The notes under the pieces were generated by a model. It did not search any database and was not told where the DNA came from. It worked only from the letters and a program-made list of their open reading frames with translations. A program made the translations under genes and the position numbers. Below are positions 4,708-64,000 of a stretch of DNA of 64,000 nt, in pieces. Position 1 is the stretch's first letter. Each line of letters starts with the position of its first letter. This DNA is from an uncultured virus (IMG/VR IMGVR_UViG_3300045180_000051) (taxonomy: Duplodnaviria > Heunggongvirae > Uroviricota > Caudoviricetes): the IMG/VR virus record IMGVR_UViG_3300045180_000051; one strand, 5' to 3'.

Positions 4708-4911
4708 TTAAGCGGCGTGGTCTGCCTCTAGACTTTCCATCCATTTTTTGAGGCTGGATCGGCGAGCAGCAACAGTGCCACCGAGCTTAAAGCTAGGCAT
4801 AATTTTATCGTAGACCAACCGATACGCTTGGCGCCTTGTGACGCCCAGATAGTTGGCAATAGGTTCGACGCCCATAAGCAAATCAGCTTCGTTATCGTTT
4901 TCAGGATGCAT
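4708..4911 (-). CDS. Excisionase-like HTH DNA-binding protein
   Basis: 67 aa, GVEPIANYLGVTRRQAYRL HTH plus wing, adjacent to att. Confidence 0.75.
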   Translation of the reverse strand: MHPENDNEADLLMGVEPIANYLGVTRRQAYRLVYDKIMPSFKLGGTVAARRSSLKKWMESLEADHAA

Positions 4912-4999
4912 GTTGATTCCCTGATTGTTGTTAAATTGTGCGGAACAAAGATTCCTGGTCGGCGTTATCGCGGCAAATTCCCCTTTTAAGGATACGGAA

Positions 5000-5194
5000 A
5001 TGTGGCCGGTAAACAGGACGATTCATAATTTTTACTACCTCTCCGAGCAGCCGAATGGTCTTTGGGCTGTAAAGGAAACCGTCAGTCAGAACCCGGTTTC
5101 TCTCAATGGGCAGCTTTGTTGCTCGCTGAAGAAACGCGACGCTGAAGAACTGATTGAGTATCTGAATGGTTTGGATGAGGCGCTAGCGGCTTAG
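5000..5194 (+). CDS. Small hypothetical protein (family with 5273 and 26605 ORFs)
   Basis: AAGGA RBS; motif Y.L.E..NG.W.V. Confidence 0.55.
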   Translation: MWPVNRTIHNFYYLSEQPNGLWAVKETVSQNPVSLNGQLCCSLKKRDAEELIEYLNGLDEALAA

Positions 5195-5272
5195 TGGGCT
5201 ATTGACCAAACGGGATTTGAAATTAAACTTCGTCTCGTGATTGGAAAGTTAGTCCACATGGAGGGTAGTGGC

Positions 5273-5467
5273 ATGGCTGACCTTAGATATGATGTCCGCA
5301 GAGAGCAGGACGGTAGCTGGACGGTTGTTAATACTAACAATGCTCTGCCAGCAGCCGTGAATGGAACGCTGCTTCACGATTTGTCAGAGGACGAAGCTAG
5401 CGAGATGGCTTATCTGTTTAATCACTGCGACATTCGATGGAATAGGTATCCGATACGTCATCAGTAG
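5273..5467 (+). CDS. Small hypothetical protein (RYDVRREQDGSWTVV)
   Basis: GGAGGG RBS before ATG; similar to 26605..26814. Confidence 0.6.
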   Translation: MADLRYDVRREQDGSWTVVNTNNALPAAVNGTLLHDLSEDEASEMAYLFNHCDIRWNRYPIRHQ

Positions 5468-5608
5468 TTCTGACTAGTCGCTTACGAATTTCTGTGACTG
5501 GCAACGCCAGCTGAATGCGCTCTTGGTTGCGGAATCTATTTCGCAACCAACTTTGTAATTTGTTTCTGTTTCGTTCCTGTTGTAATAGCTCCCTGACAGG
5601 AGAGCAGA

Positions 5609-5872
5609 ATGAGCTACATCAGCACCAACAGAACGATTGGTGAGTGCATCAAGTACGGATACAGGATCACGGCTTACTGCAATGGCTGTCATCACAACGT
5701 TTCTCTGGACTTGCCCGCTCTTTCTGAAAAGCTTGGTGCGGATCACGGCGCAATGCACAATGATCTTGTTCCAAAGCTTCGTTGCGTTGAATGCAGAGGC
5801 AAGAATATCGGTCTTATCTTCACGCATCAGAGCGCCGAGGTTGAAGGCATGGCCAAGTTCCCGAAGTATTAG
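5609..5872 (+). CDS. Small Zn-ribbon phage protein
   Basis: AGGAG RBS; CxxC...CxxC; imperfect GTTT-N7-GTTC box at 5562-5576. Confidence 0.7.
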   Translation: MSYISTNRTIGECIKYGYRITAYCNGCHHNVSLDLPALSEKLGADHGAMHNDLVPKLRCVECRGKNIGLIFTHQSAEVEGMAKFPKY

Positions 5873-5877
5873 GGTCA

Positions 5878-6174
5878 TCACTTCCCCCTTTCTTGCAGTG
5901 CGGTGCGGCGTCTTTGGTGCTGGATGAGCGCGGTATGCCCGCCTTTTACCCATACAGACATTGACCATTCACAACCGGAAGCCAGTCCGACACCATTGCA
6001 CATGCCAATGTGCGTCTCTCGCCCATTGCATCCACAATGACATTTGCGGCGGGAGTTGCGCGGCTCCATGTATCGGGTCTGCGTTTCCGAATTTCCGTAC
6101 TGGCCCCATGATTGGGTGCCTTCCGTCATCGCGACCTTCAACGCCTGTGGTGAGAGTTTTGACAGATCAGCCAT
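5878..6174 (-). CDS. Hypothetical phage protein (Cys-rich)
   Basis: Part of the tightly packed leftward early operon. Confidence 0.6.
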   Translation of the reverse strand: MADLSKLSPQALKVAMTEGTQSWGQYGNSETQTRYMEPRNSRRKCHCGCNGRETHIGMCNGVGLASGCEWSMSVWVKGGHTALIQHQRRRTALQERGK

Positions 6175-6375
6175 CTACTCACTGCCTTTCAGGGCTTGGC
6201 GACGACGCTCAACCATTTCAGCAACTTCTGACAAGTTGTCGTCTGTCATGCAGAAATCACGATCAGGTAAACCCGGAGTTCTAACGAGAACAGTGATCTT
6301 GCTGCCCGATTTGAAGCAACCGAGTATTGCATCCATAGCGTCCGCCGTTATGTGGGTTGCATCTTCCAGCTTCAT
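6175..6375 (-). CDS. Hypothetical phage protein
   Basis: ATGA coupling with the upstream gene. Confidence 0.6.
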   Translation of the reverse strand: MKLEDATHITADAMDAILGCFKSGSKITVLVRTPGLPDRDFCMTDDNLSEVAEMVERRRQALKGSE

Positions 6376-6653
6376 TCGCTCTTCTCCCCTAGTGGGCTGG
6401 CGTTGAGCATGGCTGAAAAAATCTGATCAGCCGAGTATATGCATGACCCGTAGACATGTTCAGAGGAAATGGCTTCTTCTTTTCCAGATTTTTGCATCGC
6501 CTCTGTCGGCTCCTGTAGAGCGGCGAGGATGGTGGAAATGGCGGCTTCTGCATGCCGACGAAAACGCGACGGGTCAGGTATTGGGCTTTCACCATATGCG
6601 TCGGCAATAGCCATTCGATAGCTGACCTCATTAATGAGTTCCTTACTCGCCAT
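6372..6653 (-). CDS. Hypothetical phage protein (start MASKEL)
   Basis: GGAGG RBS; operon context. Confidence 0.6.
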   Translation of the reverse strand: MASKELINEVSYRMAIADAYGESPIPDPSRFRRHAEAAISTILAALQEPTEAMQKSGKEEAISSEHVYGSCIYSADQIFSAMLNASPLGEKSE

Positions 6654-6835
6654 GGCTGGCCCTCCCGCGAACAACGATCTGTGTCTTGGTGCGATAGACG
6701 TAGAGAGGGTTTGAAAACCCATCAGTCGTGAAGATGACGCCGTTTCGTATCCCGATGCTGTCCGGGTGCCGCCTCACGAAATGTGGGGCTAATGAGGCGG
6801 CGCGGCACAGGTCATGCTCATCTACATTCACAAGC

Positions 6836-7195
6836 TTAATTGCCAGCATAGCTGGCCTCCTTTGCGCGCAAGATGGCGATGCAGAGCGCGATGGCAAGAT
6901 TGAAGCCGGTTGCATCGTGTGAAGGTGTGACGCCAATCCGCGCCCACGGCTTGGTCTCTTTGGTCTGTCCCCATCCGATAAGGACGTTAGCGCCCGGCAA
7001 CACCCTCTCAGCCAGCGCGATAGCCGCGTCTACAGAGGCGGTGTAGGCGGGGAAAGTATTTGGCACCACTCTGTAATTGCCAAGTAATTCATGGCCTAGT
7101 TTCATATTTGGCTTAGCGCCAAAATGGATTGAAATCTCTGCATCCACTTCCCTATCAGGCCCGTCCAGCTTGGATAGTCTGTCAATGAGGGTCAT
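6836..7195 (-). CDS. Hypothetical phage protein (ABA-sandwich-like)
   Basis: GPDREVDAEI...PAYTASVDAAIAL...AIALCIAILRA pattern; GGAGG RBS. Confidence 0.65.
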   Translation of the reverse strand: MTLIDRLSKLDGPDREVDAEISIHFGAKPNMKLGHELLGNYRVVPNTFPAYTASVDAAIALAERVLPGANVLIGWGQTKETKPWARIGVTPSHDATGFNLAIALCIAILRAKEASYAGN

Positions 7196-7234
7196 GGCTT
7201 ATCCTCCAAGGCTGCGCGGGCTTTGCGTGGATTT

Positions 7235-7930
7235 TCAAAAACCATCAGCATCCCACTTTACTGTTTTGTTTTTCTCGTTTTCGGCCTTTAGAGCTTCATA
7301 CTGGCCACGCCAATAATCAAGGTCTGATAGTGCATTCTTCGCATTGCCCTTCGCGCCGTTAAGGTCGTGCTCCAACTCCTTAACCCGCGCAGTCAGCGCC
7401 GCGTTGTCGGCTCGAAGATTAACAAGCTCCTGACAAGCCAAGTCCATCAGGGCATAAGCTTCCGGCTGATAGCCAGTAATGCCAGCGCCGATGATCTTCA
7501 TCCACTTATCGAGGTCGCCTTCAAACCTTAGACGCTCCTGCTCAACCTTCGCCGCAATGATGTACTCAGCCTGCGAGCGGGTGACGAGTTCGCGAAGTTC
7601 GTAAGGAATGCCAGTTTCATCTTTCCCGTTCGTCTTGATGAATGATAATTCACTAGGCAAGCGAGGATTGCGCCATTGATGATTGCCGGTTTGAAGCAAG
7701 CAACGCATTTGCGTTTCAACCGTCTCCAATTCCGAAACCGGCGCGGCGGGGCGGGTGTTCATCGGCAAGAGCGGTGCGTTAATGATCGGCGTAGTGTTCG
7801 TGCCAAGCCGTTCGTCGCTGCCACCAAGTTCGGCCATTTGGTTGAACGTGTTTTCCATGTCCTTATTCATTGGATTCACCTGTTTGTTTTGTGGCCCGTC
7901 GCCTGCAAAGATCGTGAAAGGCATAACCAA
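7235..7930 (-). CDS. Hypothetical phage protein with C-terminal coiled coil; start probably ~7870
   Basis: Long ORF in the early operon. Confidence 0.55.
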   Translation of the reverse strand: MVMPFTIFAGDGPQNKQVNPMNKDMENTFNQMAELGGSDERLGTNTTPIINAPLLPMNTRPAAPVSELETVETQMRCLLQTGNHQWRNPRLPSELSFIKTNGKDETGIPYELRELVTRSQAEYIIAAKVEQERLRFEGDLDKWMKIIGAGITGYQPEAYALMDLACQELVNLRADNAALTARVKELEHDLNGAKGNAKNALSDLDYWRGQYEALKAENEKNKTVKWDADGF

Positions 7931-7971
7931 TGGCGACGCCAGACATCCAGATTAGGGAGATGAAGATCAAT

Positions 7972-8202
7972 TCATTCGCCATGGTTGCTGTCTCCTGTCG
8001 GGTGGGCTAGTGCTTTAATGAGAGCGTCGGCGTTGAGGACGGCAATGCTGGCATGGCTATGCGCATCACGTTCGGCATACTGGATGCCGTCAGCCTCGAT
8101 TATCGCGGCCATGAATTTAACGGCGGCGTATTCTCGGAAAGACATGCCAAGCGCTTCAACTGTACTGCCTGCGACGATTGGGAATGCTGGTTTGTCTCTC
8201 AT
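7972..8202 (-). CDS. Small phage protein (PAFP...GMSFREYAA family; related to 59259)
   Basis: Common phage motif GM(S/T)xR(D/E)YxA. Confidence 0.65.
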   Translation of the reverse strand: MRDKPAFPIVAGSTVEALGMSFREYAAVKFMAAIIEADGIQYAERDAHSHASIAVLNADALIKALAHPTGDSNHGE

Positions 8203-8927
8203 TCCGACGCTCCCGGTGAGGCTGGGAGGGCAATCGGAAGCGCCGAGCCTGTCGGCTTTGCAGCTTGTTTCGCGCGGATTTTCTCGACCTTTGTCCAGAT
8301 GCGAGCAAGTTCATCCTCCCCGGCCTTGTTCATATCCAAGCCAGAAGCCAGACACAAAGCAGCAAGAGTGACCATAACGCCGCCGACTTCCTGATGCGGT
8401 TCGCCAATGTCTCGGTTAAAGACGTAATCAACTAAGGCATGGGCGCGGTCGGCGCCGTAACCTATGGATTGAACAAGCTCTAATGCTTCCTCAACGAAGC
8501 GGTCGCAACGCTCAAGCTTGTCGTTGGAGATTTACTCACCGAAACAAGCCAGCATCCAAGGCTTAACGCGATCCTGAAAAGCACCATCCGCTACAGGCTG
8601 AGACGAGAGGGCAGAGTAAAGCGTCAGAATATCTTTTCTTGCATCCTCAAGGGCGTACGTGATTTGGGCTGTGCTACCCTTCATGACATCTGAAGGCTTC
8701 ATACCGCGCCAGCGCTCTATGCTTCTCTCTAGCGCCGCTTCCTCCAACGCCTGCGCACGCGGTGATGGGGCTTTCAGCGCAACCATCATTTCGTAACAGC
8801 CGTTGATGATAACGCTTCGATCATCAGCGCTTACGATAGAAGACACTCCGTCACTGTGACGGTTTCCTGCAAGCCTCGATAGAGCTTTCGTGAGGTCTGA
8901 GGTTGGCGCCTGCTCATTGACCGACAT
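8199..8927 (-). pseudogene. Phage protein with MazG-like C-terminal domain, interrupted by an in-frame TAA at 8532-8534
   Basis: Frame reads ...WMLACFGE*ISNDKLERCDRFVEEALELVQ...EVGGVMVTLAAL... and ends in a TGA overlapping the next gene's ATG. Confidence 0.7.
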
Positions 8928-9096
8928 AACGCACCTCATCACCAACGACGACGGCCCGACCTGTTGCCGCCAGACGGCGAGCAACGGGCAGGGGAACCCC
9001 AGTGCTTCCAACAGAAGCCCGGCCTATGCGCTGCGGGCCTAGCCGCAATGCGTTGAGATAGGCAGCGTCGATACTGTTGCCGCGTTTGTCCATCAC
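8914..9096 (-). CDS. Hypothetical phage protein
   Basis: Coupled to the upstream gene. Confidence 0.5.
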   Translation of the reverse strand: MMDKRGNSIDAAYLNALRLGPQRIGRASVGSTGVPLPVARRLAATGRAVVVGDEVRYVGQ

Positions 9097-9326
9097 GCCG
9101 CCCTCCGCTTGAAAAGACGGCGATTGTCGTTGGCTGGTCGCACACGGCGCATACGGATCTTCTCGCCCGTTTTGCGCGACACGTCATATGCAATGTCTTT
9201 GATCTTTGCGGCAGTCGCCGGGTCACTCACGCGATGCCAACGGGCAATCGAAAGGATTGCTGCTGCTGTGGTGCCCTGAGCAATGAACTCGTCGGCGGTA
9301 AGAATGTGCGTGTGTCTGTTAGACAT
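9093..9326 (-). CDS. Hypothetical protein ending PANDNRRLFKRRAA
   Basis: Preceded by ACACGAGGAG element. Confidence 0.7.
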   Translation of the reverse strand: MSNRHTHILTADEFIAQGTTAAAILSIARWHRVSDPATAAKIKDIAYDVSRKTGEKIRMRRVRPANDNRRLFKRRAA

Positions 9327-9428
9327 GAATAGATGCTCCTCGTGTGGTTTTGGTAAGCGTGACGACCTGTGGCGTGAAAACGCTCGGATCGTCGATGGCT
9401 GGAAATCCTGGGGCGATACGCCCCGTCG

Positions 9429-9629
9429 CTATCTTCTCTTGTCGCGCTCTTCTATCTTTGCATCGATCCACGCTTCCACTTCGGTGCGGACAAATGCGAT
9501 GCGCTTGACGCCTATCTGAACAGGTGCAGGAAAGTGACCTTCCTTCGCCAGCGACGAGATCAGAAAACGCGACATAGTTGTGGCTTCCGTCACTTCGGTA
9601 GGCGACATAAGGCGTGGCTTGTCGTCCAT
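9429..9629 (-). CDS. AlpA family transcriptional regulator
   Basis: EVTEATTMSR...GHFPAPVQIGVKRIAFVRTEVEAWI. Confidence 0.85.
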   Translation of the reverse strand: MDDKPRLMSPTEVTEATTMSRFLISSLAKEGHFPAPVQIGVKRIAFVRTEVEAWIDAKIEERDKRR

Positions 9630-9856
9630 CACAACACCCCCATCGCGCCGACGCCCACAACAACGCAAAACCCAATGACAACAGTCATCTCAACGGCTTC
9701 ACGCGCTGCGTATCGTATCCAAGGCATGGGGCGAGCGTGCTTTTTGGCGCGGTAATCAGGGCGCCGCATTGGCTCATCGCTGCCCGCACGCGCGGCGTCT
9801 GTCTGCAGGTCTGGTTCCATATCGGCGAGCATTTCCAGCAGGGCGCGGTTCATCAC
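9629..9856 (-). CDS. Hypothetical protein with C-terminal TM helix
   Basis: Coupled ORF with hydrophobic C terminus. Confidence 0.55.
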   Translation of the reverse strand: MMNRALLEMLADMEPDLQTDAARAGSDEPMRRPDYRAKKHARPMPWIRYAAREAVEMTVVIGFCVVVGVGAMGVL

Positions 9857-10176
9857 GCAGCCTCCGCCATCTCGTGGTCTTCGCTGGCGATAGTCTCAAC
9901 GCTGCCGGGCATCTCGTCGACGAGTGCCTGATCGCTGGTAGCAATCGCGCCGCTTGTCTGGAAGACTTCGTATGTTTCGCCCGGGCAGAGCTTGGCGAGG
10001 CGCGTCGCCTCTGCCAGTGCTTGCTCAAAGGAGCCGTGTTCATACGGTAGGGTAGTGGCAACGCTAACGCGGCCGGTATGCTTGCCGCGGCGGAATACAA
10101 AGAATCCGCCGCCGATGACTTCGTTCTTCCGAGGTGCTGGCGATCTTCTTCTTCTCGGGGTTTTCGCGTTCGTCAT
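9853..10176 (-). CDS. First gene of the leftward early operon, hypothetical (ends AEAA)
   Basis: ACACGAGGAG RBS downstream of the PL-like promoter. Confidence 0.7.
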   Translation of the reverse strand: MTNAKTPRRRRSPAPRKNEVIGGGFFVFRRGKHTGRVSVATTLPYEHGSFEQALAEATRLAKLCPGETYEVFQTSGAIATSDQALVDEMPGSVETIASEDHEMAEAA

Positions 10177-10241
10177 TGGGTTACTCCTCGTGTTTGGTTG
10201 GTTCAGCAGATCGAGCTGGTGAGGCTGTCTTCGTGCTGTTC

Positions 10242-10300
10242 TGTCACCTATATATGCTTATCAGTCACCGCATGTCAACATCAACGATGACAAAAACACA
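10242..10300 (-). promoter_or_regulatory. PL-like early promoter/operator
   Basis: TTGACA (10273-10278) with TATATA -10 (10249-10254); mirror image of 11343-11400. Confidence 0.75.
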
Positions 10301-10337
10301 TCGACGAAATTCACAGGGTTAACCAAACATGAAGAAT

Positions 10338-10352
10338 GTTCTTGAAATGTTC
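10338..10352 (+). promoter_or_regulatory. Alphaproteobacterial LexA (SOS) box
   Basis: GTTC-ttgaaat-GTTC (GTTC-N7-GTTC). Confidence 0.7.
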
Positions 10353-10398
10353 TCATTATGATGGAATCATAATTCCAGTGTTAAGGGTGTGAGGTGTC

Positions 10399-10626
10399 AT
10401 GTATCCGCTGTTTGTCGTGCAAGGATTTACTGCGTGCAGGTGGGGTGTAATCCCTGACACTCCGATCCAGGTTGATACGGAAGATCATGCGCTGAGGCTG
10501 GCTCATCGCTTGGCTTGCGAAAAGCCTGCCGTCCTTGCTTTATACAGATGGAATAATGAGACGCAGATCATCGCAGCTATCGGGCGTGTACCTGATAGCG
10601 CGCTTGAAGCTGTAGCTAATGGCTAG
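10399..10626 (+). CDS. Small putative SOS-regulated protein (related to 63307..63546)
   Basis: GAGGT RBS; LexA box upstream. Confidence 0.65.
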   Translation: MYPLFVVQGFTACRWGVIPDTPIQVDTEDHALRLAHRLACEKPAVLALYRWNNETQIIAAIGRVPDSALEAVANG

Positions 10627-10629
10627 CTT

Positions 10630-11307
10630 TTAACGAGTGTTGTATTTCCCAACAACGCGATGGCAGACAGGCCAATCCGCTCGAAATTCCTTGAATTCCT
10701 TGTGCGGGTTGTACTGCTCTAACATCCATTCGCGATCATTGAAGCCGACAAGTCGTTTGATGATCGCTTCGTTCTCGTCCATTGCACTTGTGTGATAAAG
10801 AATTACGTCTTCATCACGAACTGGCGGCAAATTCGGGTTTACGAGTGCGGTTTCGCCGGGGCGATAGGCAGGAACCATGGACTCTCCGGACAATAGAAGT
10901 CCGTATCCACCCTTAACGCCCTGCAGTACGGCAGGCATTTTCATATAGCTGATTGGATCAAAGGTGATGATGACGTGGCCATCGCCGCCCTTGGCCGCTG
11001 CATAGACCGGCAGGCCGCGTTCCTGGCTAACAAGCTGCTCGCCCGGAATGGGTGAAGGCGTGAAAGTATCGGAAATTGGTTTAGCTGATGTAGCGGCCAT
11101 TTCGCCATTACCAAAAGCTAGCCAATCCTCATTTAGATCGAGCGCACGAGCGAGGCGGGCAACAAAATCGACGCTTGCGCCGCGTTTCCCGCCTTCCAAC
11201 AGACTGATCGACGACTTGTCGCGCCCAATAAGGGCGGCAAGGTCAGCCTGGCTCATTCCTTTAAGTTCACGCGCCGAACGAAGGCGCTGCGCGAAATCTT
11301 TGTCCAT
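10630..11307 (-). CDS. CI-like phage repressor (XRE HTH plus S24 autopeptidase)
   Basis: RLRSARELKGMSQADLA HTH, A-K-G-G cleavage-site region, GESM serine and IIKRL lysine. Confidence 0.9.
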   Translation of the reverse strand: MDKDFAQRLRSARELKGMSQADLAALIGRDKSSISLLEGGKRGASVDFVARLARALDLNEDWLAFGNGEMAATSAKPISDTFTPSPIPGEQLVSQERGLPVYAAAKGGDGHVIITFDPISYMKMPAVLQGVKGGYGLLLSGESMVPAYRPGETALVNPNLPPVRDEDVILYHTSAMDENEAIIKRLVGFNDREWMLEQYNPHKEFKEFRADWPVCHRVVGKYNTR

Positions 11308-11342
11308 GATGCGCTTTTCGCATAAAGTTGTGAAAATGTAAC

Positions 11343-11400
11343 GTGCGTTTTTGTCATCACATGTTGACAGTGGTGCGAATCTGTCATATATAGGTGTCAT
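11343..11400 (+). promoter_or_regulatory. PR-like early promoter/operator
   Basis: TTGACA (11364-11369)-N17-TATATA. Confidence 0.75.
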
Positions 11401-11844
11401 CAACCGGCGCAGAAGACGCTGGAATCACAAAATGGCAGGCAACGAATTGAACATCCTTCCAAGGATCACCGCCATCGAAAGATAGGCAAGTTTAACAGGG
11501 TAATAGAGGAGAGACGTAATGACGAATTCAGCCGCAAGAAGCGAAAACGTTTCTACTAAACCGCCGTAGAAATAACAGGGACACTGGTCGCTTAACAGCG
11601 GCTGGTGCTTTCGGCGTAGCCAAGGGACACTCGCATACCAAGGTCAGCAAGCCACGTCGAAAATTTTAAAGGCGGAGTTTATGAGCCGGCACCACCCGCT
11701 GCTCGCTCCGCCTCGTAATCAGAAGGGTACACGAGGAGTTTTTCAACACCAAACCCTTCTTTTCCTTCGCGAGTACCACCCCGCGCAGGACCACAGATGG
11801 CTTCACCAAGGCCATTTGTCAACCAACACCAACACGAGGAGAGC

Positions 11845-12123
11845 ATGAAAGATTATGAAACAATAGAAGAGGTGCATCGTATGCACGAGGCAAGCGCCAC
11901 TCCGACTGAGATTGGAAACGCGCTTAGCCTGCCCAGATCGACAGTGGCTTCAATTCTGCGCCGCCCGATCCCAAAATCTACAGCCGACCGCATCATTGTG
12001 CGGTGTGTTTCTAACGGTGGTTGGTCCACGGCCAATCACTGTGTGAGTTATATCGCAATGCCACGCATTCGTGCGCTGGAAGCCGCGAACGATAACTTTG
12101 AGCCGGGCGCAATCGCAGCCTGA
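11845..12123 (+). CDS. HTH protein ending in an ssrA-like tail (AANDNFEPGAIAA)
   Basis: TPTEIGNALSLPRSTVASILRR HTH; ACACGAGGAG RBS. Confidence 0.75.
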   Translation: MKDYETIEEVHRMHEASATPTEIGNALSLPRSTVASILRRPIPKSTADRIIVRCVSNGGWSTANHCVSYIAMPRIRALEAANDNFEPGAIAA

Positions 12124-12203
12124 GCAAAGATGGCCGTGTCGGAATTATAGACCTACGTATTCTTGACCGGCCACAGATCAACCTCCTGACAGGAGGAATA
12201 TCA

Positions 12204-12407
12204 ATGAAATCCCATAGCTTGCGTGAGCCACACAAGGCTTACCAAACCAAATTCACGCGGACTGGCGAGCGGGACACGACAAACCGCAAGCCTTATCGGA
12301 CGGCTGCGCAGAAGCTTCATGCCCGCGACACCGCCGTCCTTAAAGACGGTCGATACGTCTCAAACGCTCCTGTGTCCTTCAGCAGAACGAAACGGGGTGC
12401 AGCGTGA
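12204..12407 (+). CDS. Small basic hypothetical protein
   Basis: AGGAGG RBS. Confidence 0.65.
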   Translation: MKSHSLREPHKAYQTKFTRTGERDTTNRKPYRTAAQKLHARDTAVLKDGRYVSNAPVSFSRTKRGAA

Positions 12408-12709
12408 CTTGCGAATGCGGTGACTGCTGGGATCTGCCCGGCTCAATTGTGACCCACAAGCTGACAGGCTGGAAGGGCATCATCATTGGCGATCGAGACG
12501 GCTGCATGTACCTCACTGTGCGGTTCTGGATACCAGATACCGGGCTTGGGACAATCGAAGTTTCGCGCTTCGAAGTTGAACCACCGGCCAATGATGGCGA
12601 CGGCGGTGGCGGCCCTGAGGTCGGAACAGAAGAAGACAATGTCATTCCGGTCGATTTCACCAAGGGCGTGAAGCTGACCAAAAAAACCAAAACACGAGGA
12701 GTAGCTTGA
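12404..12709 (+). CDS. Hypothetical protein
   Basis: GTGA coupling. Confidence 0.6.
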   Translation: MTCECGDCWDLPGSIVTHKLTGWKGIIIGDRDGCMYLTVRFWIPDTGLGTIEVSRFEVEPPANDGDGGGGPEVGTEEDNVIPVDFTKGVKLTKKTKTRGVA

Positions 12710-13686
12710 TGGGTAAATTTAAAGCTGGATTTAAGGTTAGAAGCCTGGTGACGCAGATCGACGTTCGCGCAGGCGAACTGTACGAGGTAAAAACCGTCGA
12801 GAATGGCGGTGTTTGGGTTATCGACGGTGTTGGCGACGAGTTCTATTTGACGTCAGATGAGTTTGAAATTCTGCCTTTTGCGGCGCAAACGTTTAAGGTC
12901 GGCGACCGGGTGCGTTTGACTATTGATGAAGGCGAGGGCCGTAATAGCGGTTCCATCGGTGTCATCGAGGAAATCAAGAATAATTATGCGCGCGTATTGT
13001 TCGACGCGCCTTTTGGTGGATGGGGAACAACAGGGCGCAATTGGCACGCACAATTATCCGACCTTGTAGCCGCTCCCCTCAAAATCGAAGCAGGCAAATA
13101 CTACCGTACGCGTGACGGCCGTAAGGTTGGGCCTATGATGGCACGAAATAATGATTCATATGCATTTGCTGCTGATATAGCCGGTGATATCGGGATCCGC
13201 ATCTTCCAGAAAGACGGTGTTCACGGATCACGCTGGATAGGCAATGAGCCAAATCTCGACCTCATCGCCGAATGGCTCGACGAGCCTGTCAAAGCAGCTG
13301 CACCGGTCCAGTTTACGATGCGAAACTTTAAGCTCACATTTGAGCCCGTCGCAAAACCCGCCATCGTCGCGCTGATCGAAAACGGCCAGCCAAAGCCGTC
13401 CACGCTGCCGTTCGTTCACGCCAATGAAACGTTGGCCGCAAAGGAAGCCGCGCGTCTAGCAGGTGTCCACAAGGGCCAGGAATTCGGCGTGTATGTGCTG
13501 ACGCAGAAGGTGAGTGAGCCTGCACCATCCTATAAGCACGAATGGCAACGCTTCGCTGCAAAGGGTGAGAAGCTTTCAGCGATCAAAGAGCTGCGATCTG
13601 TGACTGGTCTCGGGCTCAAGTCGGCAAAGGACGCCGTCGACCACTGGATCGCTCACGACGAGCCTTACTCGCGCATCGCCGCCTAA
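12709..13686 (+). CDS. Mosaic multidomain protein with KOW/SH3-like modules and a C-terminal ribosomal bL12-CTD-like domain
   Basis: FKVGDRVR modules; KLSAIKELRSVTGLGLKSAKDAVD. Confidence 0.7.
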   Translation: MGKFKAGFKVRSLVTQIDVRAGELYEVKTVENGGVWVIDGVGDEFYLTSDEFEILPFAAQTFKVGDRVRLTIDEGEGRNSGSIGVIEEIKNNYARVLFDAPFGGWGTTGRNWHAQLSDLVAAPLKIEAGKYYRTRDGRKVGPMMARNNDSYAFAADIAGDIGIRIFQKDGVHGSRWIGNEPNLDLIAEWLDEPVKAAAPVQFTMRNFKLTFEPVAKPAIVALIENGQPKPSTLPFVHANETLAAKEAARLAGVHKGQEFGVYVLTQKVSEPAPSYKHEWQRFAAKGEKLSAIKELRSVTGLGLKSAKDAVDHWIAHDEPYSRIAA

Positions 13687-13751
13687 CCAGTAAATCCCAC
13701 CGATAAACCAACCAGCCCCGCTGCAATCGCGGCGGGGAATGAGGAGGTATT

Positions 13752-14042
13752 ATGCACAATAGACCGAATGCATTACAGCGGGTCCTGAGCCGTGAATATG
13801 GTGAAGACCGACTTCTAGGAATGCCAGCACGCGATCAGATGCACCATGATCGTCGATTGAATGAGATGGCGCAGATGACTGGCGGCCGTGGGTTTCGCAC
13901 CCCTTCGAAGGAAGTTCGACGCTTCGCTGACGGCACCACTCGTGGCGAGCGTAAGTGCAAGCGCCGTGAAACAGCCAATGCGGTTATTCGTGCAGCGCAC
14001 GAAGCAGCGTGGGCCCGCACTGCGTATGAGGCCAGCCTATGA
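13752..14042 (+). CDS. Hypothetical basic protein
   Basis: GAGGAGG RBS. Confidence 0.65.
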   Translation: MHNRPNALQRVLSREYGEDRLLGMPARDQMHHDRRLNEMAQMTGGRGFRTPSKEVRRFADGTTRGERKCKRRETANAVIRAAHEAAWARTAYEASL

Positions 14043-14485
14043 CGGCGCCGTGGAGCAACCAGCCCTTCAAAGACTACGTCGTCGAGGACGACCGCATCTT
14101 GTCCAGCGAAACGACGCTCGGCCTTGGTGACCGCTTCGTCATGGGGCTGGCAGTTGTCGCAGCCTTAGCACTGGCCATCGGCTTTTACTCATGGGTGCTG
14201 TCGTGAACGTCGTCACTCCAGCCGGTAATGGCACCGGGAAGATTGCACGTTCGCTGGCTCTGACCGGTTTTACGCTCGGTCTCTTGCTGATCGTGGCAGG
14301 ATTCATTTTCTGGAACGCCGTGCTGCCTTTCTACGGCCTGCTTTATTTGTGGGGTGGCCAATGATCTACCCACGGTTTCCCACGCTGGCAACTTCTGCGC
14401 CAGTCTGGCTGATCGGCTCACTCATCCTGCTGACCATGATGATCGTCATTCAACTTACCCACTAACCACACACGAGGAGTTAATT

Positions 14486-15301
14486 ATGGCTATTGATTTC
14501 AGCCAATTGAGACGCGCCGAAGATCCATATCCGCCTATTTTCATTATCTATGGGGGCGAGGGGCTAGGAAAAACTAGCTTTGCAGGAGAGTGGCCAAACC
14601 CGTTCTACGTGCGAACTGGTGCGAATGAGCGACCTCCTGTTGGTGTTGATATGATGTCGTTCGGATTGACTGAAACGTATTCTGAGTTTCTTGATCAGAT
14701 TGACTGGATGCTCGAGGCAGATCATGACCGATTAACCTTCGTTCTTGATACTGTTGATAGCCTCGAGGCTCTAGTAATCGACGAAGCGTGCGCGCGACAT
14801 GGTTGGCAAACAATCAGCGATGGCAAGTTTGCTGAGCCGAAGAATGCTACGGCAGAAATCTGGCGTGAAGTGATCAAGAAGCTCACAGAACTAAAGACGG
14901 CTGGCTACGCAGTTGTGTTGATAGCTCATGTGACAACCAAAACCGACCCTGGTGTTACAACCGATAGCTACCCTCGTTATCGCCTTAATCTGAGAATGCA
15001 GGATGACGCTAATTCGTTAGCCCATGCTGCTGATATCGTTGGGTTTATTCATCAACGGGTTTCGATCCAAAAAGAGGCGGGAGGCTTTCACAAGGATAAC
15101 GTCAAAAAACGAGGCGAGGGAAGTGGGGAGCGGCTAATTGGTATCGAAGAGCGTCCCGGCTTTATCGCTAAAAATCGACATAAGCTGACGGGTGCATTGC
15201 CGTATAAAGCCGGGCAAGGATATGCAGTTTTCCAGCCCCATATTATTGAGCCGTATGGCCGCGTAGTTCAAGGTGCAGACGCAGAGCAAGAAGCTGCTTA
15301 A
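14486..15301 (+). CDS. AAA_24/Sak4-like ATPase (recombination)
   Basis: Walker A GGEGLGKT, Walker B VLDTVD, VLIAH, AKNR. Confidence 0.85.
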   Translation: MAIDFSQLRRAEDPYPPIFIIYGGEGLGKTSFAGEWPNPFYVRTGANERPPVGVDMMSFGLTETYSEFLDQIDWMLEADHDRLTFVLDTVDSLEALVIDEACARHGWQTISDGKFAEPKNATAEIWREVIKKLTELKTAGYAVVLIAHVTTKTDPGVTTDSYPRYRLNLRMQDDANSLAHAADIVGFIHQRVSIQKEAGGFHKDNVKKRGEGSGERLIGIEERPGFIAKNRHKLTGALPYKAGQGYAVFQPHIIEPYGRVVQGADAEQEAA

Positions 15302-15303
15302 CC

Positions 15304-15912: not shown

Positions 15913-15940
15913 CCACACCACCAACACGAGGAACTAACAC

Positions 15941-16501: not shown

Positions 16502-16563
16502 GCACCAAAAAGCTGCCGGTGCTTTCGCGCCGGTAGCCCACCGAACCAACACGAGGAGTTTTT

Positions 16564-17367: not shown

Positions 17368-17425
17368 AAACCAACCACGGCGCGGTCACCAGCCGCGCCT
17401 AAACCACCAACACGAGGAGAAGCCC

Positions 17426-18484: not shown

Positions 18485-18486
18485 AT

Positions 18487-18765
18487 ATGAGCAAGAATCC
18501 ATACAAAGACGGCAAGCGCTCGTACCACAATTGCTACGGACAAAATCCATACAGCGATGCATTTAAACGCAGCGAATGGCAGCGTGGTTATGATGAAGCG
18601 GAAGAAGCCGACGATGCGGAACGCAATGCGCAAATCTCAAGGTGGAATGACCTTTGGAACGTCCCAGAACGCGCCAAAGATGCATACATCGCCATGGAAG
18701 ATGACTTCTGCCCGCAGCGAGTGCTGGACTTCATGATTGCGATGTACCCGGAGGCTAGCGAATGA
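18487..18765 (+). CDS. Hypothetical protein
   Basis: NPY...EWQRGY motif; operon context. Confidence 0.6.
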   Translation: MSKNPYKDGKRSYHNCYGQNPYSDAFKRSEWQRGYDEAEEADDAERNAQISRWNDLWNVPERAKDAYIAMEDDFCPQRVLDFMIAMYPEASE

Positions 18766-19231: not shown

Positions 19232-19233
19232 TC

Positions 19234-20695: not shown

Positions 20696-20696
20696 A

Positions 20697-22454: not shown

Positions 22455-22464
22455 AGCAAGCCCC

Positions 22465-55102: not shown

Positions 55103-55768
55103 CTAGAACTTGTAAGCAATGCCGAGTGTAGCGGTATGTTGGCTTAGACGGCGAGCCCAATCCCTAACAAGATCTTGTTTGCCGAAGTCGTTGTAACGAT
55201 ATGCAACGCGACCGATGATGTTTTGTGTGATTGCCCAATCCGCTCCAGCGCCAATGTTCCAGCCATTTCTGTCTATATCTGACTTGGCGTATGAAGAAAG
55301 ATAACCCGGAGTGACGGCATCGCTCATTAGGCTAAACCAGCCCCGTGAGTATCCAGCAGTGATGTAGGGCAGATACTGTCCGAAGGCGTAGCCAAGGCGT
55401 CCATTGACCGACGCTGTCGCTTTTGACCGAAATCTCTCTTGGAAATAAGCATCGTCACTTGCGGTGTTTAACACCCAAGGAAGTTTGTCAGCTTTGAATT
55501 CGCCGCCTGTGAATTCTACGGAAACTTCTGGACCGAATACCCACTGGCCATGTTGGAAATTGTATCCGACATAGCCGCCACCTGTGACGTTAGCGCCGTC
55601 CGCACTGTAATATTGGTTCCAAATATCAAACGGTGTGTCTGTCTTCGCTTTAGACCATCTCGCACCGATGCTCACGCCCCCATAGATGCCGGACCAGTCA
55701 AATGTCTCGGCAACAGCGGTGTTCGTCCACGCGGCAGCGACAACGGTAACAATAAGTAAATGCTTCAC
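55103..55768 (-). CDS. Omp25/Omp31/RopB-family outer-membrane beta-barrel (lysogenic conversion)
   Basis: Signal peptide, DWSGIYGG, GGYVGYNFQ, RLGYA, C-terminal GIAYKF. Confidence 0.9.
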   Translation of the reverse strand: MKHLLIVTVVAAAWTNTAVAETFDWSGIYGGVSIGARWSKAKTDTPFDIWNQYYSADGANVTGGGYVGYNFQHGQWVFGPEVSVEFTGGEFKADKLPWVLNTASDDAYFQERFRSKATASVNGRLGYAFGQYLPYITAGYSRGWFSLMSDAVTPGYLSSYAKSDIDRNGWNIGAGADWAITQNIIGRVAYRYNDFGKQDLVRDWARRLSQHTATLGIAYKF

Positions 55769-60253: not shown

Positions 60254-61507
60254 ATGCTTTCCAAACAAGAACTAGCCCGCCGTGTTGCTGCATATCAGCA
60301 GCACGGCACGATAACGAAGGCTGCGCACGCGTGCGGCGTCAAGAAGTCTGCATTTCACGACAGCATCAAACGCGCGGCTGAGCTCGGGCTGATGGGTCCG
60401 AAAGAAACGCTGCCCGGTTATACAATCAAAAGCCTGACCGAGACGCCGAACGGCACGTACATGCGCCAGACGAAAGAGGCTGGCCCTGTCTACGAAGCGA
60501 CTGCCGGTCTAGCGGTTAAAGGCAAGACGACGCTCGTTAACAGCGAAGGGCGCATCGTCACGCAGCACATCATGGAACGTGCGGACGCCGACCAACAGCG
60601 TGCAGCAATCACGGCCATGGTTGAAGCACTAAAAGAAGATTTGCCGCGCGTTTCGATTATGCCGGCGCCAAAGGGGTGTCGCGAGGATCTGTTGAATCAG
60701 TTCACGATCACTGACAACCATTTCGGCATGATGTCGTGGCGCGAAGAAACTGGCAGCGATTACGATCTGCGGATTGCCGAGCAGCTATTGCTTGATTGGT
60801 TCTCTGCGGCTGTGGCACAGGCTCCCGACGCTCACACGGCCATTCTGGCGCAGTTGGGCGACCTTATGCATCACGATGCGCTTGAAAGCGTCACGCCTGC
60901 CCACAAGCATGTTCTGGACGCTGACAGCCGCCTGCAGAAAGTCATTCGCATTGTGATCCGAACGATCCGCCGCATCATTGATATGCTTTTGCAGAAGCAC
61001 GAGCGCGTTCATGTCGTGATGGCTTCGGGGAATCACGACCCGGCCTCATCCGCATGGCTTCGTGAGATGCTCGCCGTTATGTATGAAGACGAACCTCGCA
61101 TCACTGTCGATAATTCACCGTCGCTCTATTACGCATTCGAGTGGGGCAGCACGATGCTTGCCTATCATCACGGGCACAAGCGAGGAGTCGCAAATATCGA
61201 GGGCACGATTGCTGGCATGTTCCGTGGAATGTTTGGCCGCTCGCTACACGCCTACGTGCATATCGGACACCGACACAGCGACGATGCCAGAAAAGGCACG
61301 CTGATGTATGTCGAGCAGCATGAAACGCTCGCAGCACCAGACGCTTATGCCGCTGGCGGTGGGTGGCTGTCTGGTCGATCAGCTAAACGGATAACCTATA
61401 GCAAGCAGTTTGGTGAAGTCGGTCGCGACATTCTCCGGCCCGAGATGGTCGCAGGGAAGTATGCGGCATCTAATGATAATGCGAAAAGTCAAAGGGCTGC
61501 AGCCTAA
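60254..61507 (+). CDS. HTH-fused calcineurin-like metallophosphoesterase
   Basis: N-terminal HTH; TDNH, GD, GNHD, HHGH, GHRH. Confidence 0.8.
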   Translation: MLSKQELARRVAAYQQHGTITKAAHACGVKKSAFHDSIKRAAELGLMGPKETLPGYTIKSLTETPNGTYMRQTKEAGPVYEATAGLAVKGKTTLVNSEGRIVTQHIMERADADQQRAAITAMVEALKEDLPRVSIMPAPKGCREDLLNQFTITDNHFGMMSWREETGSDYDLRIAEQLLLDWFSAAVAQAPDAHTAILAQLGDLMHHDALESVTPAHKHVLDADSRLQKVIRIVIRTIRRIIDMLLQKHERVHVVMASGNHDPASSAWLREMLAVMYEDEPRITVDNSPSLYYAFEWGSTMLAYHHGHKRGVANIEGTIAGMFRGMFGRSLHAYVHIGHRHSDDARKGTLMYVEQHETLAAPDAYAAGGGWLSGRSAKRITYSKQFGEVGRDILRPEMVAGKYAASNDNAKSQRAAA

Positions 61508-61510
61508 CCG

Positions 61511-61747
61511 TCAGCCCTTTTGGGACGCTAGATAGTCTGCAACGGCCGCTCGAATTTCAGTTTCAAGTTGGCTGGTTTGTGCCAAAATTTCTTTCATGGC
61601 TAAATCCTTATTGTCGATGAATGGGGAACGCATCCTTCCGTCTATTGGTGGAGCTATTGGGCCATATTCCACGACCACCTTCTTGCCGGAGAACTGCACA
61701 GTGATGGATGCTGAGTTCCCAACGTACTTGGCGTCTAATATTTGCAT
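61511..61747 (-). CDS. Small opposite-strand protein
   Basis: GGGAGG RBS. Confidence 0.6.
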   Translation of the reverse strand: MQILDAKYVGNSASITVQFSGKKVVVEYGPIAPPIDGRMRSPFIDNKDLAMKEILAQTSQLETEIRAAVADYLASQKG

Positions 61748-61853
61748 ATCGGCCTCCCTGATTGTTTATCAGTGTAGGCTGGGAAACCGCATCAAGACAA
61801 TACCAACCACGCCGCCCACCAAGCGGCGTTTCACCACAACACGAGGAGAGCAT

Positions 61854-62285
61854 ATGCTTGAAGAAGCAGAAGACCAAGCCGCACGCGCAGCTGTTGAAGG
61901 GCGGCTGTTAAGAACAGGGGTTATAAGGTGCCTGCCAAAACCTTATAACGACAACCGTCAACCACTCTCCATCATCGAAACACCTTACAGCGGCGACGTG
62001 GACGGCAACATAGCATATGCACGAGCGTGCCTCTTAGACAGCCTGCGACGAGGCGAGGCACCGATTGCTAGCCATTTGCTGCACACGCAAGTGTTGGACG
62101 ATATGCGGCCCGATGAACGGTCGTTGGGCATTGAGGCCGGTCTTGCCTGGTATCGTGTGGCTACGAAATGCGTTGTTTACTCTGATCGTGGTATCAGCGC
62201 CGGAATGAAGATGGGCATCGATCGAGCGATGCAGCACGATGTGGCAGTTGAGTACCGAAGCATTGAGAATAGGGCAGCGGCATGA
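61854..62285 (+). CDS. Nucleoside-deoxyribosyltransferase-like fold phage protein
   Basis: ETPYSGD...N..YAR...PIASHL...GISAGM; ACACGAGGAG RBS. Confidence 0.65.
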   Translation: MLEEAEDQAARAAVEGRLLRTGVIRCLPKPYNDNRQPLSIIETPYSGDVDGNIAYARACLLDSLRRGEAPIASHLLHTQVLDDMRPDERSLGIEAGLAWYRVATKCVVYSDRGISAGMKMGIDRAMQHDVAVEYRSIENRAAA

Positions 62286-62479: not shown

Positions 62480-62808
62480 ACCAATTCCATGTTGGGCAAA
62501 AAGTGGTCTGCATCGACAGTGCCGTCGGCTTTGAACAGTATCTCGAAATCAAGGAAGGCGAGATTTACGAGATCTCGTGGATTGGTCCGTTCGAGCATTA
62601 CACGCAAGGCAGTTTCATCGGCGTACGTCTCAATGGCGTAGATCGCGGAACTTGCCCGCAGTTCGGTTATGAAAACCCGCCGTTTGCTGCAAGGCGCTTC
62701 CGACCGCTTGTGGAAAATAAGCTGTCAGCATTGCGCGGATTGTTGGCAGGTGGGCCTTTGACTGAGAAGTTCGAGGAGCCGAAGCGTAAGGTGAGGGAAG
62801 AAGTATGA
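62476..62808 (+). CDS. Hypothetical protein (FHVGQKVVCID...RFRPLV)
   Basis: Coupled; GGAG RBS. Confidence 0.65.
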   Translation: MNQFHVGQKVVCIDSAVGFEQYLEIKEGEIYEISWIGPFEHYTQGSFIGVRLNGVDRGTCPQFGYENPPFAARRFRPLVENKLSALRGLLAGGPLTEKFEEPKRKVREEV

Positions 62809-63092
62809 TACGCTATAAAGGACCAGTAACCCGTCTAGGCGACATCACCGTCCACGGCCTTCCTTCAACTGTGACCTCCGATGGCGGCTCGACCAGCTAT
62901 TACGAGTTGCCAGATGGTGCGAGTGAGCTAAACGACCTTATTGAGTACAAAGGCATGTCCTTTGCGCTCGGCAACATCTTTAAGGCTTGTTATCGTTTTG
63001 GCGAGAAGGACGCAGCCAGCCGCCTTTACGATCTGAATAAGATCATATTCTTTGCCGAGAGATTGAAGGCGATCGAACTGCGCGCGAAGTAA
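62805..63092 (+). CDS. DUF3310-like protein
   Basis: GGSTSYY...DLIE...F..GNIFKA.YR...DL.K. Confidence 0.7.
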   Translation: MIRYKGPVTRLGDITVHGLPSTVTSDGGSTSYYELPDGASELNDLIEYKGMSFALGNIFKACYRFGEKDAASRLYDLNKIIFFAERLKAIELRAK

Positions 63093-63105
63093 GTCACGAC
63101 CAGGG

Positions 63106-63185
63106 AAAGCCCCGGCACGAGAGGTGTGATCGGGTTGCCGGGGCTGCGCTTCGCGTGGACCCAGCTTCCTGTCACGAAGCGCGGC
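63106..63185 (-). ncRNA. Solo copy of the two-hairpin sRNA unit
   Basis: GCGCTTCG...CGAAGCGC then AGCCCCGGCA...TGCCGGGGCTTT; TGaTAGAAT just upstream. Confidence 0.55.
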
Positions 63186-63306
63186 AAAATTCTATCAAAA
63201 TGAATTTTCATTGAAAAGTGCATTTTAACTCTGTTGGGTCGCCACAGATGCAATGCCTAGCTAAAAATAAACCCCGCTTTGACGGGTTTTGGTTTGAGGC
63301 GTCTTA

Positions 63307-63546
63307 TTATTCCATGTCGGGGATCTCGCCAAACTGGAAAATAATGGCTGGAGGTCCATATTCACCGATATCTGGATCTGCTTCCCGGCTCCAAGCGACA
63401 ATCCCCGAATGCTTTCCTTCAAGGCTGGTCGCAGCTTTCATTGCACGGCCTTCGGTCTCAAACGACATTGGATCGAATGCAGGAACGAGCTCACCGTCAT
63501 CATTCTTATCAAAGGCAGCAACCACGATAAGACGCGCATTAGCCAT
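63307..63546 (-). CDS. Small putative SOS-regulated protein (related to 10399..10626)
   Basis: VVAAF...GELVP...A.K.A..L...G..AWSR...FGEIPD. Confidence 0.7.
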   Translation of the reverse strand: MANARLIVVAAFDKNDDGELVPAFDPMSFETEGRAMKAATSLEGKHSGIVAWSREADPDIGEYGPPAIIFQFGEIPDME

Positions 63547-63551
63547 TCAGG

Positions 63552-63686
63552 TCACTTCCCGTTGGTGTCTTTGTCGAGATCAGAATTATCGCGGTTCGAC
63601 GTTCCACCTGCTTTTTTCGAACCTTTGGCTTTACCTGTTTTTGGTTCTACTGGGCGGACAGGGGTGTTCGTAAACTTAATTGCCAT
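63552..63686 (-). CDS. 44-aa basic peptide MAIKFTNTPVRP...
   Basis: AGAAAG RBS; directly downstream of the LexA box. Confidence 0.45.
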   Translation of the reverse strand: MAIKFTNTPVRPVEPKTGKAKGSKKAGGTSNRDNSDLDKDTNGK

Positions 63687-63716
63687 GAGTCTTTCTAATT
63701 CGTCTCCGCTTCGGAT

Positions 63717-63731
63717 GTTCCCATAATGTTC
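63717..63731 (-). promoter_or_regulatory. LexA (SOS) box
   Basis: GTTC-ccataat-GTTC. Confidence 0.7.
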
Positions 63732-63821
63732 TCATTTTGATTGAGAGTCAATCACCGTTATCATGGTTGAGGTATATGTGCCTGAGTGACTAATTATTTG
63801 CATCGGTTCCTACCGGTGCAG

Positions 63822-64000
63822 TCAAAACAGACTAGTTTGTTCTTCCTTATTGTCATTGCTTGGCGTCAGGTCGAGCAAGGCCTCATCCGGCAATGGCTTC
63901 TGCATTACCTTCGCTTCATCCCATGGCGCACGCAACCACGCGTCAATCTCCTCGGTCGTGCGGAGAATTACCGGCATTGCCTTCGGGTGAACTGGCTTTA
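63822..64000 (-). CDS. SOS response-associated peptidase (SRAP/YedK family), 3' part
   Basis: Hand translation KPVHPKAMPVILRTTEEIDAWLRAPWDEA...QTSLF*. Confidence 0.8.
   Translation of the reverse strand, partial: KPVHPKAMPVILRTTEEIDAWLRAPWDEAKVMQKPLPDEALLDLTPSNDNKEEQTSLF

Follow-up and report, generated by a model that had tools for sequence, protein, structure and literature searches.

The degradation signals read by the protease ClpXP and the adaptor SspB are textbook knowledge, and single phage proteins are known as ClpX clients, the ClpX-controlled proteins lambda O, MuA and Mu repressor among them. The C-terminal tip of SSB and the clamp-binding motifs are further examples of short peptides placed on the disordered ends of many DNA-metabolism proteins. 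Here we analysed a stretch of 64,000 nucleotides (hereafter the window) from the uncultured virus IMGVR_UViG_3300045180_000051 (IMG/VR; Caudoviricetes), which contains a prophage next to host DNA. According to our analysis, 17 non-virion proteins of this prophage carry the tripeptide Asn-Asp-Asn (NDN). This motif is almost certainly a genuine feature that has been selected at the level of the protein and reproduces the invariant parts of the peptide tag encoded by the transfer-messenger RNA (tmRNA, ssrA) of the host, as the comparison of protein and DNA sequences suggests.

The tmRNA tag of Caulobacter is AANDNFAEEFAVAA; an appended ssrA tag results in very rapid proteolysis, so that the tagged protein no longer supports viability, and deletion of sspB lowers the basal proteolysis of a tagged protein (PMC9393093). 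The E. coli tag is modular: SspB binds its AANDENY portion and ClpX is engaged by ALAA; degradation of a head with a weakened end requires SspB, and a head alone is bound by SspB but not degraded (PMC8512704). The capacity of ClpXP is limiting, and many tagged proteins form a queue and saturate the protease (“proteolytic queueing”; PMC12013620).

The tails described below share with the native tmRNA tag the head (A)ANDN, the Ala-Ala (AA) end, a length of 12–14 residues and the extreme C-terminal position. They differ in being encoded by genes ahead of their own stop codons, with no trans-translation, and in not copying the middle of the tag; furthermore, many phage carriers have the head only, or have it at a distance from the AA end, N-terminally or within a linker. 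The SSB tip and the clamp-binding motifs are placed similarly, but the sequence of the window motif is different, equals the head of the tmRNA tag and is linked to AA. Engineered ssrA degrons (AANDENY...ADAS; PMC8512704) likewise consist of a separable adaptor head and a strong or weak ClpX end; those are E. coli laboratory designs, whereas the graded set of the phage (AA, AV, SA, VA, CA, KA and none) seems to have evolved naturally. The C-motif-1 substrates of ClpXP and the CI protein of a staphylococcal phage (PMC10584840) also carry genetically encoded ClpX-client signals, but these cases are single proteins with a ClpX signal only, and none is described as copying the SspB-binding head or as involving many proteins of one phage. 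The Pseudomonas phage pf16 addresses the same host pathway with the SspB-like adaptor gp18 (PMC5587285): pf16 copies the adaptor, and the window phage copies the tag. Our search of the open-access literature found no paper on phage proteins that encode the head of the tmRNA tag, the closest case being this SspB-like adaptor of pf16.

Open reading frames (ORFs) of at least 40 amino acids were called greedily, longest first; some of them are spurious, by which the signal would be diluted and not created. The prophage set comprises 100 ORFs with 18,677 residues, and 2000 within-protein shuffles served as the null. Against shuffle means of 1.70 and 0.18, the prophage has 22 in-frame NDN and 12 ANDN, which are its most enriched tripeptide and tetrapeptide; 17 ORFs end in AA (mean 1.22). 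By position, NDN occurs eight times within the last 16 residues (mean 0.12), eight times at exactly −11 to −13 from the end (mean 0.03) and four times within the first 16 residues (mean 0.10). No shuffle out of the 2000 reached any of these counts. The 22 sites are distributed over the 17 carriers, and the residue two places before NDN is Pro at nine sites and Ala at six, so that 15 of 22 fit the fuller motif [P/A]-A-N-D-N.

The host is Brucella (formerly Ochrobactrum) pseudogrignonensis, an assignment made by sequence similarity: a host protein encoded in the window at 2456–4150 has 99% identity to a protein of strain CCUG 30717 of this species. All host features considered here (tmRNA, SspB, ClpX) were taken from the type-strain genome of the species. 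A sample of 20 stretches of that genome (351,524 bases, 449 ORFs, 109,674 residues) contained five NDN where 6.3 were expected, no ANDN and no terminal NDN, and 18 of the 449 ORFs (4%) ended in AA. An initial sequence-only reading of the window had proposed that the phage and host proteomes be counted against each other; this comparison (NDN 22 per 18,677 residues in the prophage and 5 per 109,674 in the host sample) gave a clear enrichment, with Fisher p = 1.5e-14 for NDN and p = 2e-5 for AA ends. The same reading had given about 18 ORFs ending in AA; the excess is confirmed and the count is 17.

The motif belongs to the proteins and not to a DNA repeat. The pattern AAYGAYAAY has 30 matches on both strands of the window, 22 of which are in frame and in sense in a called ORF; two are in another frame, five are antisense and one is intergenic. 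Among the eight C-terminal tails, seven distinct 12-mers encode xNDN, and this variation of codons, from which protein-level selection had already been proposed, shows that the motif is not a DNA repeat. The DNA of the tails 3′ of the motif has a mean identity of 24% and a maximum of 43% between tails, and 10–33% identity to the tag frame of the host ssrA; the longest exact word shared by the tag frame and the window is 12 nucleotides. An origin as a DNA repeat or as captured ssrA DNA was rejected in view of this lack of relationship among the tail DNAs and between them and the host tag.

All seven tails quoted in the sequence-only reading were recovered at their ORFs, two of its starts (11845 and 61854) being internal starts of ORFs called here from 11797 and 61596, and an eighth tail was added. 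NDN lies at −11 in four tails, at −12 in two and at −13 in two; five tails end in AA, and the other three end in AV, SA and LF. Every tail is encoded in frame at the end of an ordinary ORF, ahead of the stop codon of that ORF, and no tmRNA gene was found in the window, so the tails are mimics and not true tmRNA tags. Two small proteins bear complete mimics of the tag. The ORF 9093–9326 (minus strand, 77 residues) ends in ANDNRRLFKRRAA (9093–9134, minus strand; NDN at −12), and an orthologous tail, RPANDNRRPFKRRAA, is present in a viral contig (L210). The ORF 11797–12123 (108 residues), which faces the gene of a CI-like repressor (10630–11403), ends in ANDNFEPGAIAA (12085–12123, plus strand; NDN at −11), the type-strain variant of this tail being AANDNYEQPGAIAA.

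The remaining tails are found mainly on DNA-metabolism enzymes. An HNH endonuclease (29074–29490), the HNH domain of which covers residues 27–74 of 138, ends in HNDNGPLSEIAA (29452–29490, plus strand; NDN at −11, end IAA). A DNA-repair exonuclease (60254–61507), orthologous to p044 of Rhizobium phage 16-3, ends in SNDNAKSQRAAA (61469–61507, plus strand; NDN at −11), with its family profile stopping at residue 399 of 417. The ORF 30790–31707 (phrog_36072) ends in ANDNLAAAIKKYAA (31663–31707, plus strand; NDN at −13) and has a second ANDN at 30910–30921. Two DNA methyltransferases carry the head with weaker ends: the MT-A70 enzyme (24620–25195) has ANDNQDLQGRMAV (25154–25195, plus strand), with the head at −12 and the weak end AV, its Pfam domain stopping before the tail at residue 172 of 191; the C5 enzyme (25523–26638) has ANDNHCSNTLWPSA (26594–26638, plus strand), with the head at −13 and the end SA. 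The added eighth tail, SNDNKEEQTSLF (63822–63860, minus strand), has the head at −11 without an AA end and belongs to a gene cut off by the end of the window (ORF 63822–63977); the only match of this partial ORF is phrog_1599, of unknown function.

The two parts of the tag are associated within proteins. In the window, nine of the 17 NDN proteins end in AA, compared with eight of the 83 others (p = 1.6e-4), and with four genomes pooled, the AA end occurs in 27 of 66 NDN proteins and in 40 of 321 others (p = 3.6e-7). The link also holds for carriers with an N-terminal head (4708, 30428) or an internal one (16564, 61596). The two parts are also distributed unequally among protein classes. The virion module, with 21 ORFs and 6,460 residues, has no NDN and a single AA end, that of the portal, in agreement with the earlier statement that capsid and tail proteins lack the motif and that the portal ends in RAA. 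All 22 NDN and 16 AA ends fall within the other 79 prophage ORFs (12,217 residues), and the carriers include nucleases (HNH endonucleases and the repair exonuclease), the two DNA methyltransferases, the helicase and the primase, a DUF669 protein that resembles SSB, an excisionase-like protein and small proteins encoded next to the repressor gene. The motif sites lie outside the family profiles, as in the exonuclease, the MT-A70 enzyme, the linker of the primase and the DUF7768 protein. The motifs are located in loose termini and linkers of 17 non-virion proteins, and the boundaries of domains and profiles suggest that the tails are exposed.

Outside the eight tails, the motif occupies N-terminal, internal and linker positions. 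NDN forms residues 5–7 both of the excisionase-like helix-turn-helix protein 4708–4911 (4891–4899, minus strand; end HAA) and of the HNH/endonuclease VII protein 15304–15912 (15316–15324, plus strand). ANDN forms residues 4–7 of the ORF 30428–30793 (30437–30448, plus strand; end DAA) and residues 13–16 of the HNH protein 32854–33729 (32890–32901, plus strand), which has a second ANDN at 33487–33498. The ORF 16564–17367 has a split architecture, with ANDN at residue 230 (17251–17262, plus strand) and the end LAA, and the ORF 61596–62285 has NDN at residue 118, directly before DUF7768 (61947–61955, plus strand), and the end AAA; the split combinations previously listed for 4708, 16564, 30428 and 61854 are all present, the last of them in this ORF. 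The primase 26793–28994, with its Prim-Pol and AAA_25 domains at residues 26–193 and 361–548, has NDNDN in the linker between them (27705–27719, plus strand) and another NDN at 28335–28343, corresponding to NDN at residues 305, 307 and 515. The C-terminal tail of the SF2 helicase 20679–22454 contains two NDN sites, DNDN and PANDN (22374–22406, plus strand), followed by the tip LDDEIPF (22434–22451), and we take the DDEIPF of this tip to resemble the acidic C-terminal tip of bacterial SSB. In the DUF669 SSB-like protein 15941–16501, ANDN stands 27 residues from the end (16415–16426, plus strand). The sites attributed earlier to the SSB, helicase, primase and HNH proteins are thus all present, while the label SRAP could not be verified, as the product at 63822 matches only the phrog named above. 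A separate feature of the DUF669 protein is its conserved terminal ...(R/N)PWSK, present in the window (16484–16498) and in the orthologues, with PWGGK in Rhizobium phage RHph_TM3_3_14B.

Comparison with related phages indicates that the motif is maintained by the lineage. The prophage is a member of the phage 16-3 group on the basis of sequence comparison, its exonuclease having 68% identity to p044. In 16-3, Sinorhizobium phage NV1.1.1 and RHph_TM3_3_14B, NDN occurs 18, 26 and 16 times and ANDN 15, 19 and 13 times, respectively (0 of 2000 shuffles in each case). The motif stands at orthologous positions despite diverged neighboring residues, in orthologues with 28–71% protein identity. Both NDN sites and the tip DDE[IV]PF of the helicase are conserved in all four phages. 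The DUF669 protein keeps the motif in four of four and the distance from the end in three of four (26 in RHph_TM3_3_14B), and the 30790 family keeps two NDN sites in three of three (window, NV1.1.1 and RHph_TM3_3_14B). NDN begins at residue 5 in both the HNH protein 15304 and p084 of 16-3. Gain or loss is seen as well: the Cas4 exonuclease has a tail in 16-3 and NV1.1.1 and none in the window phage, and the portal has ANDN...AA in 16-3 and RHph_TM3_3_14B and only RAA in the window phage. In the type strain, this tRNA-Lys site likewise harbors a prophage, a mosaic variant of that in the window (G002:C48:262001–281228, compared with window 4562–22884), in which blocks of 86–99% identity alternate with unrelated genes; this variant has an additional tail of its own, GNDNVPATARRKKSA, on an ORF missing from the window. 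The nearest virus record has 99.995% identity to window 15613–34156 and therefore provides no independent evidence.

An alignment of nine repair exonucleases places the extension in this group. An ANDN extension of 14–15 residues beyond the core SPEMVxG is present in four of four phages of the 16-3 group and in none of the five sequences outside it (two other Rhizobium phages and phages of Pseudomonas, E. coli and Aeromonas). In a plain tail scan of the best 150 cluster representatives of the family, two had NDN in the last 20 residues, both of them the closest relatives, so that the family shows nothing to suggest repeated independent gains. Nineteen of these 150 representatives end in AA, often right after the PEML core (...PEMLEAA), AA being the commonest ending by far; this suggests that the AA end is widespread in the family beyond the ANDN clade. 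The control phages showed no enrichment: Rhizobium phage RHph_Y5A has three NDN, one ANDN and six AA ends in 113 ORFs, and lambda has one NDN, no ANDN and seven AA ends in 75. When viral contigs were scanned for ANDN-x7-AA-stop at the DNA level, at least 121 stretches and at least 80 loci were obtained. Among the 80 loci listed, 17 close an open frame of 60 codons or more, and orthologues of the tails at 9093 and 11797 are among these; the other 63 have no upstream frame of 60 codons and look like tmRNA genes.

The tmRNA tag of the type strain, as identified by ARAGORN, is ANDNKAQGYALAA. The sequence-only reading had used the Caulobacter tag for comparison and quoted it in agreement with PMC9393093; the relevant tag is nevertheless that of the host itself. 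The alpha_tmRNA is present in 39 of 41 genomes of the host’s order, and the tag was readable at 28 of 29 loci; all 28 tags start with ANDN and end in AA, 26 having 12 residues and two having 13. Together with four tags of the host clade, this gives 32 tags of the order, all of which have the ANDN start, the AA end and a length of 12–13 residues. Native NDN is located at −11 in 26 of the 28 tags, and at −12 in the other two and in all four tags of the host clade. The proposed comparison with the host tag thus revealed the same head, the same AA end and native spacing: the phage head is identical to the start of the host tag, the native distance from head to end is kept in eight of eight tails, and the AA end is present in a subset. 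To judge from the aligned sequences, the phage tails reproduce exactly the invariant parts of the tag and not its variable middle (mostly Tyr-Ala-Glu/Pro...).

The corresponding machinery is encoded by the type strain of the host species, in which alpha_tmRNA, a ClpX with its zinc-finger domain and an SspB (192 residues) were identified; SspB is present in 60 of 61 genomes of the order. The C-terminus of the type-strain SspB, ...SLDSFRKK, provides the ClpX-docking tail, and an alignment of 25 SspB sequences from the order shows it to be conserved, FRKK included. Among solved structures, 2nys (Agrobacterium) and 2qas/2qaz (SspB of Caulobacter) are the closest to this protein. The window proteins themselves yielded neither an SspB homologue nor a ClpX-docking tail of the SspB type. 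In 36 of the 39 genomes with a tmRNA match, the tmRNA gene and sspB lie at most 3 kilobases apart on the same contig, mostly at 100–700 bases (for example, 138627–138997 and 141472–141996 on G002:C49); the genes for the tag and the adaptor are a conserved pair in this order.

We also predicted a complex between residues 1–125 of the host SspB (alignment of 25 rows) and residues 64–108 of the 11797 product, with three controls. The complex scored 0.34 (runs 0.34, 0.33 and 0.40), compared with 0.00 for the best control, which is graded as weak support; the contacts agreed between runs in at least 57%, and the predicted local distance difference test (pLDDT) value of the partner was at least 46. 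The mark set for this score is reached by 116 of 157 solved complexes and by 2 of 215 mismatched pairs, and only 18 of those solved complexes, together with both mismatched pairs, score 0.60 or less. The prediction indicates a likeness rather than binding.

We consider it probable, by analogy with the tmRNA tag, that the non-virion phage proteins with tag-mimicking motifs work through binding to SspB and degradation by ClpXP. The head [Pro/Ala]-Ala-Asn-Asp-Asn would mimic the invariant start of the tag, the part recognized by the SspB adaptor, and the C-terminal Ala-Ala would mimic the part recognized by ClpX. A head combined with AA at the native spacing (NDN 11–13 from the end) would constitute a complete, genetically encoded degron; a head with a weaker end (AV and SA; VA, CA and KA in 16-3) may lead to SspB-dependent degradation; and a head alone may hold the protein on SspB but need not lead to its destruction. 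These three classes of phage proteins map onto the three behaviors of the E. coli tag described above. The likely effect would be that nucleases, methyltransferases, regulators and replication proteins are short-lived or scarce as long as ClpXP capacity is free. The sequence-only reading had proposed timed turnover of early and middle proteins, or titration of the adaptor; its sequence-level part is borne out, and either of the two functions would be a candidate.

Several observations weigh against this SspB–ClpXP reading. Eight of the 17 NDN carriers have no terminal AA, three of the eight tails in the window end in AV, SA or LF, and four of the five tails in 16-3 end in VA, CA or KA. The helicase, the primase and the SSB-like protein, which presumably need to persist, also bear the head. 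Native tags mostly have Tyr directly behind NDN, a residue that is not conserved in the phage tails, and binding could be weak if the alphaproteobacterial SspB needs it. Since SspB–tag complexes have already been solved (2qaz, 2qas), the score of 0.34 may reflect the memory of the model. The AA ends of 4% of the sampled host ORFs mean that AA alone need not be a strong degron, and the lack of the motif in RHph_Y5A means that phages on such hosts do not generally require it.

The limited capacity of ClpXP and the queueing of its substrates are the basis of two further readings. The first extends degradation through SspB and ClpXP into a rather doubtful proposal, in which the shared degron would place about twenty phage proteins in a common queue for proteolysis and so filter noise and time the lysis–lysogeny switch. 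In the lysogen, SspB and ClpXP would remove nucleases, methylases and regulators that arise from leaky expression. Upon induction, mass expression would saturate the adaptor and the protease, so that the tagged proteins would be stabilized together and the ssrA quality control of the host would simultaneously be blocked, and the graded ends (AA > VA/CA/SA > none) would set the place in the queue. Such an arrangement would be a natural counterpart of the coupled-degradation circuits of synthetic biologists.

The second is jamming in trans, in which the heads saturate SspB, or the tails ClpX, during lytic growth and thereby stabilize other substrates or block the quality control of the host, instead of timing the turnover of the carriers. 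This is unlikely, although the eight carriers with a head and no AA end, and the replication proteins among the carriers, would fit it, as would the binding of a head-only tag to SspB without degradation in E. coli (PMC8512704) and the saturation of limiting ClpXP by many tagged proteins (PMC12013620). A pure decoy would need neither the link between NDN and AA within proteins nor the native spacing seen in eight of eight tails; one abundant decoy would do, yet there are 17 unrelated carriers, and no dedicated small decoy protein was seen among the window proteins.

Quite unlikely, in our view, is docking to another hub, such as the phage sliding clamp (17426–18484), the SSB-like protein or another phage or host factor, in the manner of clamp-binding or SSB-tip peptides at the termini of many DNA enzymes. 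Nearly all carriers are DNA-metabolism proteins, a DnaN homologue is encoded by this phage as well as by 16-3 and RHph_TM3_3_14B, and the SSB-tip-like end DDEIPF of the helicase indicates that the phage does use terminal peptide motifs. Against such a hub, the motif consists of the invariant residues of 32 of 32 tags of the host’s order and is tied to AA at the spacing of the tag, and complete tails also occur on small regulators without a role as DNA enzymes (9093, 11797). The NDN motif is also unlike what we take to be the clamp-binding consensus. The predicted docking to SspB (0.34, compared with 0.00 for the controls) may argue in the same direction, weakly and possibly through the memory of the model. 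That the motif has no function and reflects chance, composition, a DNA repeat or captured ssrA DNA is scarcely credible, as crude ORF calling and the frequent integration of phages beside tmRNA genes (63 of the 80 viral-contig loci listed look like such genes) are its only points, set against 0 of 2000 shuffles, frame- and strand-specific matches, tail DNAs unrelated to each other and to the ssrA tag DNA, conservation at orthologous positions (28–71% identity) and no such enrichment in the host sample or the two control phages.

As for the setting of the motif, bases 1–4486 of the window are host DNA with genes for an HWE histidine kinase, a BA14K-like protein and an Abhydrolase_9 protein. The left junction of the prophage is a tRNA-Lys(ttt) gene (4486–4561, plus strand), the site shared with the type-strain variant, and the prophage extends from about 4.6 kilobases to the end of the window. 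It comprises the CI-like repressor, replication and DNA-modification genes, the virion module (33.8–54.1 kilobases), an endolysin and more early-type genes. The DnaN sliding clamp encoded at 17426–18484 is a full three-domain protein. Within the prophage, genes for tRNA-Pro(tgg) and tRNA-Met(cat) (32042–32214) separate the early region from the terminase genes, and a tRNA-Met occupies the equivalent position in NV1.1.1. A gene for an OMP_b-brl outer-membrane beta-barrel protein (55103–55765, minus strand), located on the opposite strand in the interval from the tail genes to the endolysin, could be a lysogenic-conversion gene like lambda lom.

In conclusion, if the proposed role of SspB and ClpXP is correct, this prophage would exemplify motif mimicry on the scale of a proteome in a bacterial virus, with both modules of the tag placed on a large share of the non-virion proteome. 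It would also provide natural substrates of SspB in alphaproteobacteria, where few are known, and a ready set of naturally tuned degradation tags. Finally, it would explain how temperate phages restrain their toxic early enzymes.

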